A stretch of DNA of 64,000 nucleotides from Candidatus Fraserbacteria bacterium (GTDB lineage Bacteria > Bipolaricaulota > Bipolaricaulia > RBG-16-55-9 > DRXL01): NCBI GenBank assembly GCA_947085185.1, contig CAMTVK010000021.1, positions 72,409 through 136,408 of the forward strand, in the 5' to 3' direction. The notes beneath the pieces are model-generated. The model had not been told where the DNA came from. It was given only the letters and a program-made list of their open reading frames with translations, and ran no database searches. Both the position numbers and the translations under genes were made by a program. Below are positions 51,827 through 64,000 of this stretch, piece by piece (the first letter of the stretch is position 1; every line of letters begins with the position of its first letter).

Positions 51827-52536
51827 CAGCATTTCCAGTCCTTTCGAACTGGGCTGGACTATGCCTTCATCCCTTGCGGGATGCGGGGCGTGTTAGCGCT
51901 TGCATGAAGCGCTCCTAGTACCCACCCTCCCCACAAAGAAGAGTGGAGTCGGTGGGCCTATGAGTCTCTACAGGGCCGGCCTGAGGTTAGCCCCCTTCCG
52001 ACCCCTCGGCGTTGCCATCGTGTGTTTGGGCACACAAGCAGGCTTCGCCGATGTGAGCCCCGTTGTCACCTAGACATCGCTGCCTAGGGCGACCTTGTGA
52101 GGTTATGGCGAAGAATTCTTTAATAAACTGCTCTCGTTGCTTTAATAGCTCGGCAGAGTATCTGCCGTTGCGGGGTGTAAGAGCTCGATAGCGATATAGC
52201 ACCAGCTCTGCTCGGTGTCGTTTGTAGCTTCGCAAATGAGACGCAACTTGCTTAAGAAGAGCAAGAGCTTGGGCGTTAGATATGGCATACGTATAGCTAG
52301 GCGTATGCTCAGGCTTATAGACGCGCTTCGTTGTAATCCGACCGGCGCCAACCACCTTCTGCACCCACGCCAGCACTGAGTGCTCCGTACTGCTGATCGA
52401 AACCAGCAGATGTCGATGGGCGCCTCGGTACTTACGAGTGAGGGTGATGGTGCCCTCACCGTCAATTAATCCGGCAAGATAAGCGCGTTCAGCTGTGGTC
52501 AGCTCTCTGACACCCTGCACCATAACCTCGATGTTG
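51827..52536 (-). mobile_element. Group I intron in the tmRNA T-loop
   Basis: Exon ends in U and the intron ends in G. IGS GGUCG pairs with CGAU|C through a U.G wobble. P3 CGGGGC/GCCCCG, R element GTAGAGACT, S element GAAGGCATAGTCC, P8 CATCCC-GCAA-GGGATG, P9 with a GAAA loop. Confidence 0.9.
51987..52523 (-). CDS. Single-motif LAGLIDADG homing endonuclease (intron-encoded)
   Basis: AYLAGLIDGEG motif. Lies entirely within the intron. Confidence 0.9.
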   Translation of the reverse strand: MVQGVRELTTAERAYLAGLIDGEGTITLTRKYRGAHRHLLVSISSTEHSVLAWVQKVVGAGRITTKRVYKPEHTPSYTYAISNAQALALLKQVASHLRSYKRHRAELVLYRYRALTPRNGRYSAELLKQREQFIKEFFAITSQGRPRQRCLGDNGAHIGEACLCAQTHDGNAEGSEGG

Positions 52537-52940
52537 ATCGAACCCGCGTCCGGAGATGCTTTCGCTTGGCATCTACAGGCTTAGTTCGGTGTTTTGCTTT
52601 GAGATCAGCCGCTCCCACCGAACAGGATCGGCTGATCCGAGCTCCATTGAGAGATTCCCACGCGCCCCAGAGCTGAGCGCGCGGTCAGCCCGTTTTGTCG
52701 GTCCCTTGCGCGAGCCAACGGGCAAAGCTCCGCGCAAGAGATGCCTCCCTTAGTTCAGAGAAGCAGTAGCGTAAGCAAAGTTGTTGGCACTTATGGGCCA
52801 TCGGCCGTTTTTGGGAGGTGGCCGCAACTCCGCCTGCAGCCTCCCTGCCGCATCCCCGTCGAATCCAGTGCACCCCCATGTCAAAGACCATGCGCGCTGC
52901 GCACCTTATATTATAGCAGAAGATTGTGCGCCTTCAACTA

Positions 52941-57259: not shown

Positions 57260-57958
57260 ATGACCAAGCTCTCCTGCGCTCAGTGTCGGCCGCCTTGCCC
57301 GCTTGGAGACCTTTCCCCTCAGGAGACGTGGGCACTGAACGGGCTTATGCGCTCTGTATCGTTTCCTTCAGAGCAGGCACTCTTCGAGCAGGGAGACCCG
57401 CAGAGCGGCTGCTATCTTCTCTGCGAAGGGGTAGCGGTCCTACGGGCTCGCACATGCTTAGGAAAACGGCTGATAATAGGGCTTGTCGGGCCGCACGATA
57501 TAGTCGGTGTGGGGAGCTTCTTGGGGCAGCAACGCCATGAATTGAGTGTGCACGCGCTCACGGAGGTGCGGGCTCTCCATCTGACCAAAGCGGCGTGTGA
57601 TAGTCTGATGCGTGAGCCCTCGGTGTTAGTGAACCGGCTGTGTGTGGTGATGGCTCGGCAGGTGAGGCAGCTTCGCAGGCAAGCGCGGCTGTTGGCGGCG
57701 CGGGCGGGGGTGCGCGAGCGGCTTGCTGCGCTGTTAATGGATCTGGCGGAGCGGTATGGGGAGCCTACGCCAGCGGGGCTGCGGCTCAAGATCCAGCTCA
57801 GCTGTGAGCTGTTGGGCCAGATGCTGGACAGCCATCGCTCGACGGTGAACCTAGAGCTTATTAAGCTGGAGCGGCGCGGGCTGATCGAGAGAGTATCGCG
57901 TCAGATCGTGATTGTGGATGAAGCACGCTTACGGGATCTGGCGCAAAGCCTCTTCTAA
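57260..57958 (+). CDS. Crp/Fnr family transcriptional regulator with N-terminal Cys cluster
   Basis: CAQCRPPC, LFEQGD cNMP-binding fold, RERLAALL..L, HTH HRSTVN. Confidence 0.88.
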   Translation: MTKLSCAQCRPPCPLGDLSPQETWALNGLMRSVSFPSEQALFEQGDPQSGCYLLCEGVAVLRARTCLGKRLIIGLVGPHDIVGVGSFLGQQRHELSVHALTEVRALHLTKAACDSLMREPSVLVNRLCVVMARQVRQLRRQARLLAARAGVRERLAALLMDLAERYGEPTPAGLRLKIQLSCELLGQMLDSHRSTVNLELIKLERRGLIERVSRQIVIVDEARLRDLAQSLF

Positions 57959-58010
57959 TCGTGATCTTCTGGAAAGTGTTGCCAAGCCAACAGTCGAAGT
58001 GTTGTGAAGA

Positions 58011-58109
58011 CGATATACTAACTGTTGCCTGGACGGCAGTCGGGCTCCGCGGGGCGGTGTATGCTGAGCCATCCCAAAACGAGAGGCGCACCGCCTCGAA
58101 AGGGAGACA
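58011..58109 (+). repeat. Structured leader repeat, copy 1
   Basis: GATATACTAA...CTGGACGGCAGTCGGGCTCCGCGGGGCGGTGTATGCTGAGCCATCCCAAAACGAGAGGCGCACCGCCTCGAAAGGGAG. Confidence 0.9.
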
Positions 58110-58280
58110 ATGAAGTGGCGGAAGCTGGTAGCGGTCTGTACGGTCGGAGTGGTGCTGGCGCTGCTGCTGGGTGGGTTGCCCAGTGCGGACCAGATTCATT
58201 CAGCAGTTGTGACTTCTAGCAGTATACACATGGGTGCTCCTGTCAGCTGGCTCGTTTGTGAGCTAGCTGACAGGAGCTAG
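58110..58280 (+). CDS. 56-aa signal-peptide-bearing small ORF or gene stub (MKWRKLVAVCTVGVVLALLLGGLP...)
   Basis: RBS supplied by the repeat. Its 3' end coincides with an 18-bp hairpin at 58236-58277. Confidence 0.45.
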   Translation: MKWRKLVAVCTVGVVLALLLGGLPSADQIHSAVVTSSSIHMGAPVSWLVCELADRS

Positions 58281-58310
58281 TTGTAGAATCAGCTGATCAG
58301 GAGGTGCATT

Positions 58311-59198
58311 ATGTGTAAGCGCATAACATGCTTTGGATTGACGGCATTTTTGCTATTAAGCGGCATAGCGACCGCTCATCCGGCATCACCAGGAGAAGTG
58401 TGGCACAGCGGGTGGACATTGTGGCAATTGGCCGACGAGAATTGGTATTTCCGGCTGACCGTAGGAGCGCTGGCGAACATCTACCCTGAACTGCTCCAAC
58501 CCACAGGCTTCGCACGCCTTACGCTCGGGCTGAGCTGGAGCCCAAACTGGCTGCTAGCGCCCCAAGTGCACGTGACAAGAGCCACCCATGAGATCGGCAT
58601 TGGGCTTGAGAATATCGGAGGTGAACCGCGGTGGGTGCTGGAGCTCACGCCCTTTGTCATCGACTTTGAGATCAATCCTCGCTCATCTGCCCCGGCGCTA
58701 CAGCAGCCGACAGCTCAACTGGATCAGCAAGTCTCACTAGATCTGAAATCATTGGTGCTCGCGCGCTTGGATGACTTACTCAAAGCCATCGAACAGATGG
58801 CCAAAGGCATCCCTACTCTCGATCCAACTGCGTTGCGCGATCCGCTCACCGAGTTCAAGAAGGCCTTTGAAGCGGGCAAGATGAACGATGCCGCCATGCA
58901 GCTCGATACCTTCAGCGTCACGCTGTTGCTCATACAGCGTAACGGGCTTCTGACGAAGTTCCAGGAGACGCATCTGCGAGCCGGGCTGCATCGTTTAGTC
59001 TCGGCGTTCGCCCTGTTTAGAGAGCAAGTCCAACGCCAGACGGTGAAAATCTGCACAGGGCTTTTCGTCAGCGAGGATCAAAAGTCTGAAGAGGTGCTCA
59101 GCCCGCTGTTGACGGAGATACTTAAGAAGCTCACGTTCACCAACACCAAGACGGGGGCCAAGGAGACTTTCACCCTGAAAGAGTCCAAGTGCTTCTGA
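58311..59198 (+). CDS. Secreted hypothetical protein; C-terminal helical domain shared with 61977-62486
   Basis: AGGAGG RBS, signal peptide. Confidence 0.7.
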   Translation: MCKRITCFGLTAFLLLSGIATAHPASPGEVWHSGWTLWQLADENWYFRLTVGALANIYPELLQPTGFARLTLGLSWSPNWLLAPQVHVTRATHEIGIGLENIGGEPRWVLELTPFVIDFEINPRSSAPALQQPTAQLDQQVSLDLKSLVLARLDDLLKAIEQMAKGIPTLDPTALRDPLTEFKKAFEAGKMNDAAMQLDTFSVTLLLIQRNGLLTKFQETHLRAGLHRLVSAFALFREQVQRQTVKICTGLFVSEDQKSEEVLSPLLTEILKKLTFTNTKTGAKETFTLKESKCF

Positions 59199-59253
59199 GG
59201 ACGCTAACGGATCGTGACCGCCGCTCAAGTAGTGGCATCCAAAAGGGGGTATT

Positions 59254-59901
59254 ATGAACAGTCGCAAGGTTCAACTCATATTGGTTGCTCTCACGGCTGC
59301 CGCATTGCCCGTGGGTGCAATAGACATCCCTGCCCAAGCGCAAAGCCCTTTACCCGCGTACTATGCTGCCCAGCTTGCTGGAGGCAGTCTCGCCGCGCTT
59401 GCGGGCGGCTTAGGGGGAACGCTCGTCGGCGGCTTGAGCGGGGCTCTGCTTGGGGTAGCTTTTGAGTTCCTAGAAGCCCCCTTCGCCATCTATCGAGAGA
59501 CTGATCGCCTCTCGCGCGCTGTGGACTGGGCCTTCCTCGGAGCCAAGGCGGGCTTTGGCCTGGGAGCAAGCCTCGGCGCAGCAGCAGGCGTCGTATATAT
59601 TGCTTCGGCCTCTGGCGTGGCAGGTGATCCCCAAGGAGCGATGATCGGTGCCTTCATTGGTGGGATGGTGGGCATGACGATCTTGCTCGATGCGAGTCGC
59701 CCTTTCTTCCAGTGGCGCTTCATACAAACATCTGAAGGGCTGCGCGCCAGAGCCAAGAGGGGCGTTGAGTTCAAGCTCTTGCTCAATCCCGTGACGCTGG
59801 CTGCCTTAGGCGCGACCATCGGGTACAACATGGGAGCTGAGAGAAGCAACGCGAATCAAGCGATTTCCATGCCGCTCATCGTGCTGCAGAGTGTCTTCTA
59901 G
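59254..59901 (+). CDS. Secreted/membrane glycine-zipper protein
   Basis: Signal peptide and several GxxxG helices. Confidence 0.65.
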   Translation: MNSRKVQLILVALTAAALPVGAIDIPAQAQSPLPAYYAAQLAGGSLAALAGGLGGTLVGGLSGALLGVAFEFLEAPFAIYRETDRLSRAVDWAFLGAKAGFGLGASLGAAAGVVYIASASGVAGDPQGAMIGAFIGGMVGMTILLDASRPFFQWRFIQTSEGLRARAKRGVEFKLLLNPVTLAALGATIGYNMGAERSNANQAISMPLIVLQSVF

Positions 59902-59924
59902 TCCCAACTTTTTGAAAAGTGTCG

Positions 59925-60020
59925 CGATATACTAAGTCTGGACGGCAGTCGGGCTCCACGGGGCGGTGTATGCTGAGTTATCCCAAACGAGAGGCACACC
60001 GCCTCGAAAGGAGGATGACG
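59925..60020 (+). repeat. Structured leader repeat, copy 2
   Basis: Near-identical to copy 1, with pairing-compatible substitutions. Confidence 0.9.
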
Positions 60021-60074
60021 ATGATTATCATAATAATAGGTGACGATGTGATAATCATCATCGTGATTATCTAA
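60021..60074 (+). CDS. 17-aa poly-isoleucine peptide MIIIIIGDDVIIIIVII
   Basis: AAAGGAGG RBS 6 nt upstream, at the same position as the start codons after copies 1 and 3. Ile is encoded by mixed ATT/ATC/ATA codons. Confidence 0.55.
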   Translation: MIIIIIGDDVIIIIVII

Positions 60075-60093
60075 AACAAGTTTAGGTTGCTAG

Positions 60094-60136
60094 AACGAAC
60101 AAGGCTATTTATAATGCAAAAATAGCCTTGTTCGTT
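60094..60136. terminator. Perfect 17-bp hairpin (terminator, attenuator or stabiliser)
   Basis: AACGAACAAGGCTATTT-9 nt-AAATAGCCTTGTTCGTT, with only a weak U tract. Confidence 0.6.
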
Positions 60137-60157
60137 ATTAGACTCAAGGAAGGCAGT

Positions 60158-61162
60158 ATGGGTGTAGGGTTACTCGTTCAAAAAGTTTCTAAAGCCTTTA
60201 AGGGGAAATTCGTCCTTCACGATATTAACTTGACTGTGCAACCTGGAGAGGTCGTGCTCCTTAAAGGCCCTAATGGGAGCGGGAAATCCACGCTGGTCTA
60301 CCTGATCTCCGGCGTCTATCTGCTCGATACAGGCGATATCTGGCTAGACGGGATCTCTCTCAAAAAGGAGCCCCGCCGCGCCAAAGCTGCTGTCACAACT
60401 GCTTTTCAGGAGACGTTCTTTGACTCGCTCCTCTCGCCCCTACAGGCACTCTCTCTCCATACCAAGTTCTACGGCGCTCCCTGGAGCAGAAAGCAAATCC
60501 AACAAATCTTAGAAGAGTTTGGCGTTAGCGAACCAACTCGCCCTATCTTCCAATTGTCAGGGGGAACGAAGAAAAAACTCGAGCTGCTTAAGATTCGGTT
60601 GCTCGAGACTCCAGTCTATCTTCTTGATGAGCCCTTTGCCGGGTTGGATGAGTCAAGTCATAAGCAGATCGTAGAGATGATACGCGCTCGTAAGCGCCAG
60701 GGCAGAGCGATCTTGCTCATCAGCCATGAGCTAGAAAGACTCGATTTTGTTGACCGCATCCTATACCTTGAGTCTGGGCGGATCACAGAGAGCGCCAAGG
60801 AGGTTCCCAAGATGCACATTGAAGCTATTATAAGGGGATGGAGAGAGGAGCACCGCACAGCACTTGAGCCTTATCTGGTAGAGGTGCAAAAGTTGGAGCC
60901 GACAGAGGAAGAGATTCAGGAGCTGCTCAAGCCCTTGGGGGTAGATATCTTAAGCAAGCCCATTCGGATCATCCGGGCTGATGGAGCTATCGCTCAGGAG
61001 CTCCTCAAAGGGTTAGGAGGGTCTGTACGCACTATTTCCTCTCATCAGCAAGCTTCAGCGTTGAGAACCAAGCTCAAACTGGCTGGAGAGCTCTCTATCG
61101 CCCAAGCAGCCCAGCTGCTTGAGGAGTGCGGCTTAGAAGTGCTGGAGGTACGACAGGTGTAA
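60158..61162 (+). CDS. ABC exporter ATP-binding protein
   Basis: GPNGSGKST, LSGG, LLDEPFAGLD, ISH. Confidence 0.92.
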   Translation: MGVGLLVQKVSKAFKGKFVLHDINLTVQPGEVVLLKGPNGSGKSTLVYLISGVYLLDTGDIWLDGISLKKEPRRAKAAVTTAFQETFFDSLLSPLQALSLHTKFYGAPWSRKQIQQILEEFGVSEPTRPIFQLSGGTKKKLELLKIRLLETPVYLLDEPFAGLDESSHKQIVEMIRARKRQGRAILLISHELERLDFVDRILYLESGRITESAKEVPKMHIEAIIRGWREEHRTALEPYLVEVQKLEPTEEEIQELLKPLGVDILSKPIRIIRADGAIAQELLKGLGGSVRTISSHQQASALRTKLKLAGELSIAQAAQLLEECGLEVLEVRQV

Positions 61163-61165
61163 GCC

Positions 61166-61903
61166 ATGCAAGCTACGTTGCTGTTATGGTGGGTCTTCCT
61201 CAAAGAAGCTTTTACCCGGTGGGAACTCCTTCTGCCCTTTGCTGTCAATCACCTGCTGGCATTATGGGTCTTCAGCTGGGGATTTCAAAGGATTGCCGGG
61301 GCAGAATACGCCCAAATCTTAGCTATTGGCTGGATCAGCTTTGCCATGGTAACTATTGCTGTCATCGGTAGCATTACCCTGACAATCGATCTGAGCTTGC
61401 AAAAGATTCGTTATTGGCTGAGCTTGCCTGTCTCGCCAGGAGCGATCGTATTGGGAAAGCTCCTCAGCGTTGGCGCTTTAAGCATAGCCGCTTCTTTGTT
61501 CACGTTGGCTCTGGGGCGAGCCCTCTTGCTGCAAATCGAGCCGATTGAAGCCTTGTGGATCTTGCTGGTCCTTGTGCTTCAGGGATTTACGCTCGTCGGT
61601 CTGCTTGCTTCTATCTCTATATTTATACGCGATATCACAAAAGTTGGCGTCATTATCAGCTTGATAGTCGGTGCGCTGCAATATCTCAGCGTCGTCTATT
61701 TCCCTATCGAGATCTTCCCAACGTATGTGAGGGGGCTCATTTATCTTAATCCACTGACTTACGCCGTCAATTTCACAAGAGCGCTCTTGCTCTCAGACCG
61801 GCTCGACTGGCTCTCTTTAGCTATGCTAAGCCTCTTGAGCGTCGGGTGGCTGCTGGTGGGCTGGGCGGTCTTGCAAAGGAAGGTGATCCATCGGGAGCGC
61901 TAA
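61166..61903 (+). CDS. ABC-2 type exporter permease
   Basis: Six TM helices, LPVS...GK, YFP...NPLTYAVN..R. Confidence 0.88.
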   Translation: MQATLLLWWVFLKEAFTRWELLLPFAVNHLLALWVFSWGFQRIAGAEYAQILAIGWISFAMVTIAVIGSITLTIDLSLQKIRYWLSLPVSPGAIVLGKLLSVGALSIAASLFTLALGRALLLQIEPIEALWILLVLVLQGFTLVGLLASISIFIRDITKVGVIISLIVGALQYLSVVYFPIEIFPTYVRGLIYLNPLTYAVNFTRALLLSDRLDWLSLAMLSLLSVGWLLVGWAVLQRKVIHRER

Positions 61904-61976
61904 AATATCACATCTCCCAAAGATGCGGCATCGAAACACCTCAACAGAGAGCAAGGTGAAGAAGGAGGGATTACTT

Positions 61977-62486
61977 ATGATGAATGGCTGGCTGAGGAAA
62001 GTAGCGATTAGCGGTACTCTAGCGCTTATGTTGCTGACAGTTGGAGGTCAAGAGTGGCTGAGAGCGCAAGGTGGACTTGATCTGAAGGCTTTAGTCAACA
62101 CGCGTACTGATGAGCTGATTAAGCTAGCTCAAGACCTCAAGCTTGATATCAGCACCTTAACAGAGTTCAAAAAATCGTTCAATGCTGATCAGGTTGAAGC
62201 AGCGAGCAAGTCCCTCAATGCTTTTCCGGTCATAGTTGTGCTCTTTGCCGACTTGGGGAGGCTAAAAAAACTTGATGAGGCTACTCTCCAAGCGAGTCTT
62301 TACAAACTAATGAGCGCTCTGGAGCTCTTTCTCGAGACTGTCAAAAAGCAAGAGGCTAAGATTTGTGTCGCGCTGTATCTGACGGAGAAGAAGGGAGAGC
62401 GGATCGTCTCACCGTTCATCAATGAAGCCCCTAAGGAGATTGGAGGAACAGTCCCTCTCAAACTCCAAGAACAGCGATGTATTTGA
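61977..62486 (+). CDS. Secreted hypothetical protein, paralogue of the 58311 C-terminal domain
   Basis: AAGGAGG RBS, signal peptide. LDLK.LV, LTEFKK.F.A, KIC and terminal C[IF] are shared. Confidence 0.7.
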   Translation: MMNGWLRKVAISGTLALMLLTVGGQEWLRAQGGLDLKALVNTRTDELIKLAQDLKLDISTLTEFKKSFNADQVEAASKSLNAFPVIVVLFADLGRLKKLDEATLQASLYKLMSALELFLETVKKQEAKICVALYLTEKKGERIVSPFINEAPKEIGGTVPLKLQEQRCI

Positions 62487-62492
62487 GTATCG

Positions 62493-62561
62493 AGCGGCAT
62501 AGCAACCGCTCAGACAACGCCATCAGAACTGAGGCGCGATCTGCATAGCGGGTGGACATTG
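62493..62561 (+). pseudogene. Remnant of a 58311-type gene N-terminus
   Basis: Translates SGIATAQTTPSELRRDLHSGWTL versus SGIATAHPASPGEVWHSGWTL in 58311. Ends exactly at repeat copy 3. Confidence 0.65.
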
Positions 62562-62658
62562 AATACTAACTGTTGCCTGGACGGCAGTCGGGCTCCGCGA
62601 GGCGGTGTATGCTGAGCCATCCCAAACGAGAGGCGCACCGCCCCAAAAGGAGGAGACG
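62561..62658 (+). repeat. Structured leader repeat, copy 3
   Basis: Near-identical to copy 1. Confidence 0.9.
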
Positions 62659-62766
62659 ATGAGAGGGTTAGCGACGGTCGGATTTGTTGCAGTGCTGGTA
62701 GTTGTGCTTGGCGGGTGTGGCTTTTTCACGCGGATCGCCCGTTTTCACAATCCTGAACTCTCCTAG
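62659..62766 (+). pseudogene. 35-aa lipoprotein-signal stub (MRGLATVGFVAVLVVVLGGC...), probably frameshifted or truncated
   Basis: AAGGAGGAG RBS, LGGC lipobox, early stop. An open frame continues to 62908 in another frame. Confidence 0.5.
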
Positions 62767-63014
62767 CCAGCATGACGTACGACTCAACGGCATCCACTGG
62801 GGACAAATCTCATGGAGCGGTGTGTTGAGGCGCATCTTTAGCGGAATATGGAATGTGCAGATGGACCTGGGGGCACTCCTTGTATGCGATCCTTGGTTCG
62901 ACTGCTAGCAAGAGCAAGCGTAGGAGGATTCCAGAACCTGAGAAGACGTAATATAAATGAAGCTTGTTGGGCATCTAGCCCTGGTGAGAAGTTGGCTCAG
63001 AGAAGAGGCGGCCG

Positions 63015-63584
63015 ATGAGGGGAGGACTTTGGCTCCTAAGTGTTCTCTGCGTAGTGTTGCTCATAGCCGTCGGTTGTATTCCGGAGGACAATCTAGGGAC
63101 CATCTCCCTTTGGGTGGAGGTCCCCTCGGAAATACGCTTAGGCGAGCTCGTGCCCTTAAAGCTCAAGGTGAAGAATAACAGCATCTGGCCCGTTACTCTG
63201 GCCCACGGCTACCCACCGCATAACTTCATCGTAATGAAGTCTGACGGCGCGGAGGTCTGGCGTTGGGCAACGGGGCTTTTGGATGTCATCCTCACAACGC
63301 CCCTGTCCCCAGGGGAGGAGTTAGAGTTTACCGCCGAGTGGGATCAACGAAAACTTAAGTGGGATGACCGGAGTGGCTATATCAGAGGTGACCTTGTGCC
63401 GGCAGGCACCTACTGGGTCCAAGGCATCTTGCATGGGAACACATTTGAGAAGGTATATGGGGGTGGTGCAGAACATCTGAAGACCAAGCCCAAGCGATTG
63501 ATCATCAAGCCGTTTGGCTCTGAACCATCTAAGGAAGGCTCCAACAATTCACATCAGACAAAGATGAGGAAAGGAGGGGAGTGA
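63015..63584 (+). CDS. Lipoprotein with BsuPI (intracellular proteinase inhibitor)-like Ig domain
   Basis: AVGC lipobox, LKVKN..PVTL, NFIV..G.EVWRW, LSPGE, WDQ, VPAGTY. Confidence 0.7.
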   Translation: MRGGLWLLSVLCVVLLIAVGCIPEDNLGTISLWVEVPSEIRLGELVPLKLKVKNNSIWPVTLAHGYPPHNFIVMKSDGAEVWRWATGLLDVILTTPLSPGEELEFTAEWDQRKLKWDDRSGYIRGDLVPAGTYWVQGILHGNTFEKVYGGGAEHLKTKPKRLIIKPFGSEPSKEGSNNSHQTKMRKGGE

Positions 63585-63651
63585 ATCTAAATGCTCAAGA
63601 TGCCCGGATTTCTCTTGCTGCTAATACTCATCAGTGGAAGAGGAGCAAAGT

Positions 63652-63783
63652 ATGGATAGAAGATTCATATCACTTCTTGGTACCGTGCTTATCCTCGGTG
63701 GATGCACTCCCCTAGAGCTTCCACCGCTGCCTCAGAGTTGTGAAGAAGTGCCCCCTTGTTGTGATGACTTTTACGAGCCCTAG
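63652..63783 (+). CDS. 43-aa small lipoprotein or stub (MDRRFISLLGTVLILGGCTPLELPPLPQSCEEVPPCCDDFYEP)
   Basis: AGGAG RBS, LGGC lipobox. The stop coincides with the start of the duplicated segment. Confidence 0.45.
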   Translation: MDRRFISLLGTVLILGGCTPLELPPLPQSCEEVPPCCDDFYEP

Positions 63784-63792
63784 AGGTGCATT

Positions 63793-64000
63793 ATGTGTAA
63801 GCGCATAACATGCTTTGGATTGACGGCATTTTTGCTATTGAGCGGCATAGTGACTGCTCATCCGGCATCATCAGGAGAAGTGTGGCACAGCGGGTGGACA
63901 TTGTGGCAATTGGCCGACGAGAATTGGTATTTCCGGCTGACCGTAGGAGCGCTGGCGAACATCTACCCTGAACTGCTCCAACCCACAGGCTTCGCACGCC
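63793..64000 (+). CDS. Second copy of the 58311 gene, 5' part (runs off the window)
   Basis: 63783-64000 matches 58301-58518 with 4 substitutions by my comparison. Confidence 0.8.
   Translation, partial: MCKRITCFGLTAFLLLSGIVTAHPASSGEVWHSGWTLWQLADENWYFRLTVGALANIYPELLQPTGFAR

Follow-up and report, generated by a model that had tools for sequence, protein, structure and literature searches.

Here we describe a peptide gene and the transporter genes that follow it in a 64,000-nucleotide stretch of DNA from a Candidatus Fraserbacteria bacterium, hereafter the window (contig CAMTVK010000021.1, positions 72,409 to 136,408; G000:C21:72409-136408 in our labels, where G000 is the window's genome and L numbers are loci). 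The locus comprises the following features, in window positions:

60009..60015, + strand: Shine-Dalgarno sequence AGGAGGA, the 3' end of a leader repeat
60021..60074, + strand: very probable gene for a 17-residue poly-isoleucine peptide, MIIIIIGDDVIIIIVII, examined through its sequence, its orthologues, a codon-position test and an AlphaFold model of an in-frame 34-residue open reading frame (ORF)
60087..60115, + strand: sigma70-like site, TTGCTA-17-TATAAT (10/12), overlapping the hairpin of the next line
60094..60139, + strand: perfect 17-bp hairpin (arms 60094-60110/60120-60136) with a U-rich tail (6 T of 9)
60158 (likely start)..61162, + strand: ATP-binding cassette (ABC) ATPase, ABC_tran, 334 residues, with Walker A, signature-like, Walker B and H-loop motifs
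61166..61903, + strand: ABC-2 permease, ABC2_membrane, 245 residues, of a distinct subfamily

This layout, a poly-isoleucine frame behind a ribosome-binding site and followed by the hairpin, the ATPase and the permease, had been proposed in an earlier note made from the window's letters, and all of its parts are confirmed. The ribosome-binding site that the note called perfect does read AGGAGGA, but it is not specific to the peptide, being the end of a promoter and leader repeat with four copies in the genome. The codons of MIIIIIGDDVIIIIVII include five ATC, four ATA, two ATT and two GTG and are followed by an in-frame stop. Another ATG lies in frame at 60015, where it overlaps the Shine-Dalgarno sequence, and an inverted repeat (60017-60030/60049-60062) lies within the peptide ORF. 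The isoleucine share of 0.65 is the highest among the 14052 ATG-started ORFs of 12-40 residues in the whole genome, where the best unrelated ORF reaches 0.33. Together with its orthologues, the peptide has a grand average of hydropathy of 2.3-3.1, a net charge of 0 to -2 and 61-76% beta-branched residues. The coding sequence is found without letter differences in contigs of the sequencing runs X1, X2, X3 and X5 from two studies, one of which may itself be the window's source. ATA makes up 10.7% of the isoleucine codons in the genome's long frames versus 4/11 in the peptide. The use of all three isoleucine codons had been taken as an argument for selection on the peptide; this is weak evidence, because ATA is restricted to the window copy, and it is the comparison with other loci that makes the case for a gene.

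Permease orthologues came from genomes G001 and G005 and the metagenome loci L055-L057, and a further locus, L043, a 3-kb contig (G185:C187) of a genome binned as Bacillota, was reached through the DNA pattern. The same frame, a short isoleucine-rich ORF with a central Gly-Asp of the kind the earlier note had proposed to search for upstream of homologous exporter genes, is present ahead of the permease in all six of these other loci, the ones with a readable upstream region. Its common form is M(V/I)IIIIGD(G/D)(W/V) followed by 6-8 aliphatic residues. The frame is intact in four of the six, with a length of 17-19 residues from start to stop: MKMVIIIIGDGWIIIIIIT in G001, MVIIIIGDGWIIIIVIT in both G005 and L057, and MIIIIIGDDWILIIIVLV in L056. 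Since L057 repeats G005 and L055 repeats L056, the data represent five lineages including the window, four of them with an intact copy.

The pattern of variation among these lineages is that of a coding sequence. The Gly-Asp pair is invariant and encoded by synonymous codons, and both aliphatic runs exchange Ile, Val, Leu and Thr only. The start codon, the Shine-Dalgarno sequence, the Gly-Asp pair and an in-frame stop (TAA or TAG) are retained, and changes in length amount to whole codons, L055 excepted. Not one of the 48 internal ATN triplets is ATG. Over the ten pairs of the five lineages, which are non-independent comparisons, differences at the three codon positions number 26, 13 and 82, with 63 synonymous versus 34 non-synonymous codons. 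Between the window and G001, the peptide differs at 3, 2 and 11 of 15 codons by position, where the corresponding values for the permease gene are 0.25, 0.11 and 0.51 (Fisher p 0.0005). The codon-position test gives p<0.05 in seven of the ten non-independent pairs, with a profile that mirrors the permease gene. We conclude that 60021-60074 is very probably a real peptide gene and, judging from these sequence comparisons, one that several uncultured Bipolaricaulota retain ahead of the same transporter and that was previously unannotated.

The linkage between peptide and permease also holds at the level of the phylum. A permease orthologue occurs in three of 184 phylum genomes, many of them incomplete, and the peptide pattern occurs in the same three, each time beside the permease; a control pattern has no match. 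A GTDB-wide scan with the peptide pattern returned 18 loci, of which three are this cassette (L039, equal to G005; L047, equal to G001; and L043) and one is a Flavobacterium ORF described below. The other 14 were set aside by eye as frames that arise by chance or run antisense to other genes. Viral contigs yielded neither the peptide pattern nor a permease relative, and two permease queries found no match among plasmids. We further note that L043 places the cassette in a Bacillota bin (G185:C187), with its own promoter and an upstream tandem duplication, which could reflect transfer or a binning error.

The permease has 23 close matches with identities of 71-100%, its own record among them; one is from Ca. 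Acetothermum autotrophicum. In a quick tree of 53 selected proteins, its subfamily forms a group of 24 entries that includes Oceanithermus (Shimodaira-Hasegawa-like approximate likelihood ratio, SH-aLRT, 94). Against PDB sequences, the subfamily profile gave a single match, 8tsh (E 0.001), and no Pmt chain. Weak matches to the permease profile at L124, L125, L127 and L128 were set aside as generic DrrAB-like pairs that have no peptide in the available stretch. The ATPase carries a C-terminal extension of ~110 residues; its structure model is poor (predicted local distance difference test, pLDDT, 55), and the fold search was for this reason not used.

AlphaFold, run on the in-frame 34-residue ORF (59970-60071), places strands at residues 18-23 and 28-33, on both isoleucine runs, with GDDV as the turn; for the last two blocks, the pLDDT values are 96 and 91. 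The peptide is thus predicted to be a beta-hairpin of two six-residue strands joined by a GD(G/D)(W/V) turn. A prediction of a four-copy complex of the same ORF scored 0.07, which is no evidence either way. Like the earlier note, we find no modifying enzyme adjacent to the gene in the window's genome, and the peptide is likely made without a leader or modifying enzyme.

We consider it somewhat probable that the peptide is the substrate of the adjacent exporter and has a structural or membrane-active role. The first of three options in the earlier note, a beta-hairpin peptide secreted through a transporter of its own, is the best-supported of them: coding-type conservation, linkage to one permease subfamily and the predicted hairpin all favour it, while export and activity are what we infer from them. 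Several observations weigh against this reading. The AlphaFold model includes 17 upstream residues that are not conserved. ABC-2 permeases as a class handle many substrates. Two of the six orthologous frames are broken: that of L055 is the L056 frame shifted by a 4-nt deletion relative to the near-identical L056, and in L043 a TAG replaces the Trp codon while the ATPase and permease frames stay open, so that the exporter stands there without an intact peptide. The cassette is found in just three of 14 genomes of the genus, and the five known lineages all lie within Bipolaricaulota or close relatives, except L043. The set with readable upstream regions excludes the distant permeases P0014-P0025, one of which, WP_147145728, is from Oceanithermus desulfurans.

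The hairpin at 60094-60139 is likely a terminator or an mRNA-stabilising stem. It is retained in the orthologues with a different sequence, the stem being present in five of five folded loci and the tail having 5-6 T of 9 in four of four; in L043 the stem is split by an insertion and the promoter differs from those of the other loci. A terminator scan with a loop limit of 8 nt did not list the stem. The sigma70-like site that overlaps it has similar counterparts, identified by eye, in L056 and L043 and is a possible separate promoter for the ABC genes. If most transcripts end at the stem, the peptide mRNA would exceed the transporter mRNA, and the ABC genes would be expressed by read-through or from the second promoter. 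The hydrophobic peptide would enter the membrane, from which the ABC-2 transporter would remove it, combining export with self-protection as in PmtCD. Outside the cell its likeliest role would be that of a self-assembling surface- or membrane-active peptide, its hairpins stacking into sheets, surface films, fibres, pores or membrane lesions. This stacking is the weakest step, and the scheme taken as a whole is rather doubtful.

A different role for the same gene product is that of a small accessory subunit or regulator that stays in the membrane with the ABC transporter, which would then export something else. Strict linkage to a single transporter and extreme hydrophobicity fit such a role, as do the open transporter frames beside the broken peptide of L043, and AcrZ and KdpF are small accessory peptides of transporters. 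However, known accessory peptides are single transmembrane helices, and this peptide has 17 residues, one or two central Asp residues and a predicted beta-hairpin. The strong stem between the peptide and the ABC genes also suggests a peptide in excess rather than one in stoichiometric amounts. We consider an accessory role unlikely.

The frame could also be a translated leader, in which ribosome stalling through isoleucine shortage, an isoleucyl-tRNA synthetase inhibitor or drug-dependent arrest controls the ABC genes; an Ile/AUA-sensing attenuator was the second option of the earlier note. The leaders of ilvGMEDA and thr are amino-acid attenuators, and the window resembles them in having a short ORF rich in one branched-chain residue, with two runs of isoleucine codons, followed by a terminator-like stem with a U-rich tail. 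Isoleucine runs are present in all copies. The window differs from these leaders in that no antiterminator was found, an exporter lies downstream and a turn motif is conserved between two symmetric runs. In the folding calculations, the stem is paired with a probability of 0.99-1.0 at all simulated ribosome positions in five of five loci (at least 0.88 in a stricter rerun on four loci), and since no antiterminator forms at any of these positions, attenuation is unlikely; the folding is an equilibrium calculation and blind to kinetic or Rho-dependent control. Pairing of the 5' arm with upstream RNA does not exceed that of shuffled sequences (479, 429, 308, 449 and 259 of 500), the arm being loosely defined for G001, G005 and L057. 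The S. aureus ilvD leader, as presented in PMC5794164, has an antiterminator that pairs with the U-tail only and is a precedent for a leader here. Indeed, the tail pairs partly with upstream RNA when the ribosome is at the stop codon (up to 0.77 in G001 and 0.56 in G005), but its pairing with the coding sequence is at most 0.04 in the window and 0 in L056 and is therefore not conserved. Sensing of isoleucine would require neither the invariant Gly-Asp nor the exchanges among Ile, Val, Leu and Thr, and ATA is absent from the other four lineages. A promoter-like site sits on the stem, and the downstream genes encode an ABC-2 exporter, not isoleucine synthesis, uptake or metabolism. Control by such a leader is improbable.

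A comparably slim probability attaches to an exported pheromone-like signal that neighbouring cells sense, possibly with feedback on a Crp/Fnr-family regulator encoded next to the cassette. PptAB-type ABC transporters export hydrophobic peptide pheromones, according to the account in PMC4173765, a regulator gene is adjacent in five of the six other loci, and the Flavobacterium ORF, which bears a signal peptide and ends in a nearly identical core, lies beside a TPR-like AraC regulator. However, the neighbouring regulator is of the Crp/Fnr type with a cyclic nucleotide (cNMP)-type domain and not of the RRNPP family, the peptide would be nearly insoluble, and the Flavobacterium ORF is a singleton without a homologue, its pattern not being enriched in 401 genomes of the family.

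Non-coding DNA, the third option of the earlier note, with the frame as a by-product of a Fur-family operator array or a slipped triplet repeat, is highly improbable. In favour of this option, the best 19-bp match to the Fur consensus scores 15-17 of 19 in all five lineages, a Fur-family gene (PF01475, over cut-off) is present in five of five genomes tested, an ATN-periodic DNA site would likewise vary at every third base and two frames are broken. Against it, synonymous recodings of the peptide that follow the genome's codon usage score at least as high as the real sequence in 997, 91, 139 and 315 of 1000 trials (the test was also run with uniform codons), internal ATG is lacking, the start, Shine-Dalgarno sequence, Gly-Asp and stop are kept, and the length changes outside L055 are of whole codons. 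Nor do the homologous loci show a palindrome kept with the reading frame lost, the pattern that the earlier note had named as counter-evidence. Since a Fur-family gene exists, a secondary Fur site overlapping the start codon is still conceivable.

The closest functional parallel to an exported hairpin peptide is the system of phenol-soluble modulins (PSMs) and their Pmt transporter. PSMs have no signal peptide and are N-formylated, with the formyl-Met retained. The window's system shares with them a short hydrophobic peptide without a signal or leader sequence and an ABC transporter, known here by linkage only. In contrast, PSMs are amphipathic helices of 20-45 residues, whereas the window's peptide and its orthologues have 17-19 residues and a predicted beta-hairpin fold, and the window's peptide has no polar face besides the central acidic turn. 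PmtCD exports hydrophobic PSMs and protects the producer, and PSMs can form amyloid-like fibres, as these sources summarise (PMC9974410; PMC6173799). The locus may thus work like PSM/Pmt with a peptide that, on its predicted structure, is not a helix and would not be a PSM.

Other known classes fit less well. Leaderless bacteriocins of the aureocin A53 and enterocin K1 types are cationic, helical and about 30-55 residues long, unlike the window's peptides of 17-19 residues with a charge of 0 to -2 and a beta prediction. Short hydrophobic peptides (SHPs) and pheromones exported by PptAB/EcsAB are likewise very hydrophobic and served by an ABC transporter, in the description of PMC4173765, but they originate in signal peptides or precursors and their targets are RRNPP regulators, whereas the window has no precursor part, a linked exporter and a Crp/Fnr neighbour. 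Pamtides and imiditides have a conserved Asp in a hairpin-like region, going by the part of PMC10787088 that bears on it, and the invariant Asp of the predicted turn is similar; unlike theirs, the window's locus has no PAMT enzyme, leader or follower peptide. The chaplins of Streptomyces are also hydrophobic, surface-active, secreted and beta-sheet-forming, but they carry a signal peptide as well as a domain of 40 residues, and the relevant section of PMC6173799 describes no ABC exporter for them. The features tested place the peptide outside the attenuators, pamtides, leaderless bacteriocins and SHPs. Such a peptide was not described in the open-access literature searched, a scope that leaves out subscription papers and supplementary small-protein catalogues.

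Poly-isoleucine beta-strands are strongly prone to aggregation, and these bacteria have nonetheless kept a gene that encodes little but isoleucine. If the ABC pair exports its product, the system would be a beta-hairpin counterpart of PSM/Pmt and a natural model for making and removing an amyloid-prone peptide without a chaperone, leader or modifying enzyme. Because the peptide has just 17 residues, it can be synthesised to test its structure and activity even though the organism is uncultured. The locus points to a kind of gene that escapes annotation and looks like an attenuator or a Fur box, and the permease subfamily offers a handle for finding more of them. More speculatively, and with rather low probability, it would represent a family of minimal all-beta peptides that are encoded by genes, left unmodified and secreted, in which a poly-isoleucine hairpin forms a cross-beta film, fibre or membrane pore and is served by its own ABC-2 subfamily reaching other phyla (Oceanithermus).

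The peptide gene belongs to a larger repeat-bearing region with the following features:

57260..57958, + strand: Crp/Fnr-family regulator with a cNMP-type domain
57977..58038, + strand: three tandem TGTyG-N6-CrACA-like boxes, 23 nt apart, around TATACT (intact promoter)
58077..59984, + strand: 1.9-kb cassette between regulator and peptide in the window's genome
59928..60015, + strand: -10-like TATACT (59928-59933) and a hairpin leader of ~80 nt (repeat)
61977..62486, + strand: 169-residue signal-peptide-like protein of no known family

The leader repeat has four copies in the window's genome (59928, 58029, 62577 and contig C15 8086-8189) and matches in six of 13 other genomes of the genus. Neither the leader nor the stem matches an Rfam family, and covariation in the leader alignment shows a two-sided change in one of 22 pairs, which therefore does not support a riboswitch. 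The other leader copies precede ORFs that, by eye, resemble signal-peptide or lipoprotein genes. The copy ahead of the peptide has kept TATACT but not the three palindromic boxes upstream of it, which are lost or collapsed; in relatives, the intact three-box promoter precedes the peptide leader. In G001, G005, L055, L056 and L057, the Crp/Fnr gene is followed immediately by the peptide cassette. The boxes are likely Crp/Fnr operators, and the regulator would control the cassette through them, the window copy having lost its boxes.

The 1.9-kb cassette is missing from G001, G005 and L056, and one contig of run X5 skips it (58076 joined to 59985), a junction that may represent an insert-free strain or a join across the repeat. 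The 169-residue protein follows the permease in G001, G005, L055, L056 and L057 but does not do so in L043. Its paralogue, at 36%, is the C-terminal half of 58311-59198. An array of cassettes behind a Crp/Fnr gene is seen in the window (57968-64000), at C15 8086-8189 and at L034, L035 and L036. Each array cassette starts with the same promoter and hairpin leader, made up of the three tandem palindromic boxes, TATACT and a stem whose base pairs with the Shine-Dalgarno sequence, and the content varies between genomes, which suggests recombination through the repeat. Within the inserted cassette, 59254-59901 (+) is a 215-residue Gly/Ala-rich membrane-type ORF, glycine-zipper-like by eye and without a Pfam or NCBIfam match. 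The segments 58301-58518 and 63783-64000 are a 98% identical duplicate of the start of a 295-residue secreted-type gene, the second running off the window's end. Short ORFs with signal-peptide- or lipoprotein-like starts (58113-58280 and ~62659-62760) lie behind the other two leader copies and may be truncated cassettes, because one has a longer homologue on C15.

The Flavobacterium ORF (L052 4860-5042) has 60 residues, a signal-peptide-like start and the C-terminal end GIIIIGDDVIIIIY, a core nearly equal to the window's peptide. It is flanked on one side by a divergent AraC-type regulator and on the other by a GLPGLI gene with a large outer-membrane-type protein. The peptide pattern occurs in eight of 401 genomes of the family (nine matches) versus ~40 control matches, and only the L052 match is a small secreted-type ORF. 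No homologue of the L052 ORF was found, and with the pattern not enriched the likeness may be due to convergence or to chance; the hairpin core may have re-arisen as the C-terminus of a small ORF bearing a signal peptide. Atlas scores of 0.82 and 0.80 in a follow-up are leads only. A survey of 30 loci that hold related outer-membrane barrels gave one further small ORF with a signal peptide upstream, and the motif is absent from it.

A PAMT-like methyltransferase of 405 residues lies ~1.3 kb behind the permease, with other genes between, in L055 (3501-4718) and L056 (3540-4757). Its best matches, below cut-off, are the PIMT-like families TIGR04188 and TIGR04364 associated with peptides that ribosomes make and that are modified after translation (RiPPs), and no obvious precursor lies beside it. 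Long homologues in G001 and G005 are on other contigs and have internal stops. A PAMT link was rejected, as the enzyme is near the locus only in L055 and L056 and the window's genome has only a short canonical PIMT-type match.

Elsewhere in the window, a tmRNA (52535-52869, - strand) has a 3' end that breaks in the T-loop and is directly followed by an ORF for a LAGLIDADG endonuclease (51987-52523, - strand). ARAGORN found no tmRNA. The arrangement looks like an intron with a homing endonuclease inside tmRNA, and such introns are known.

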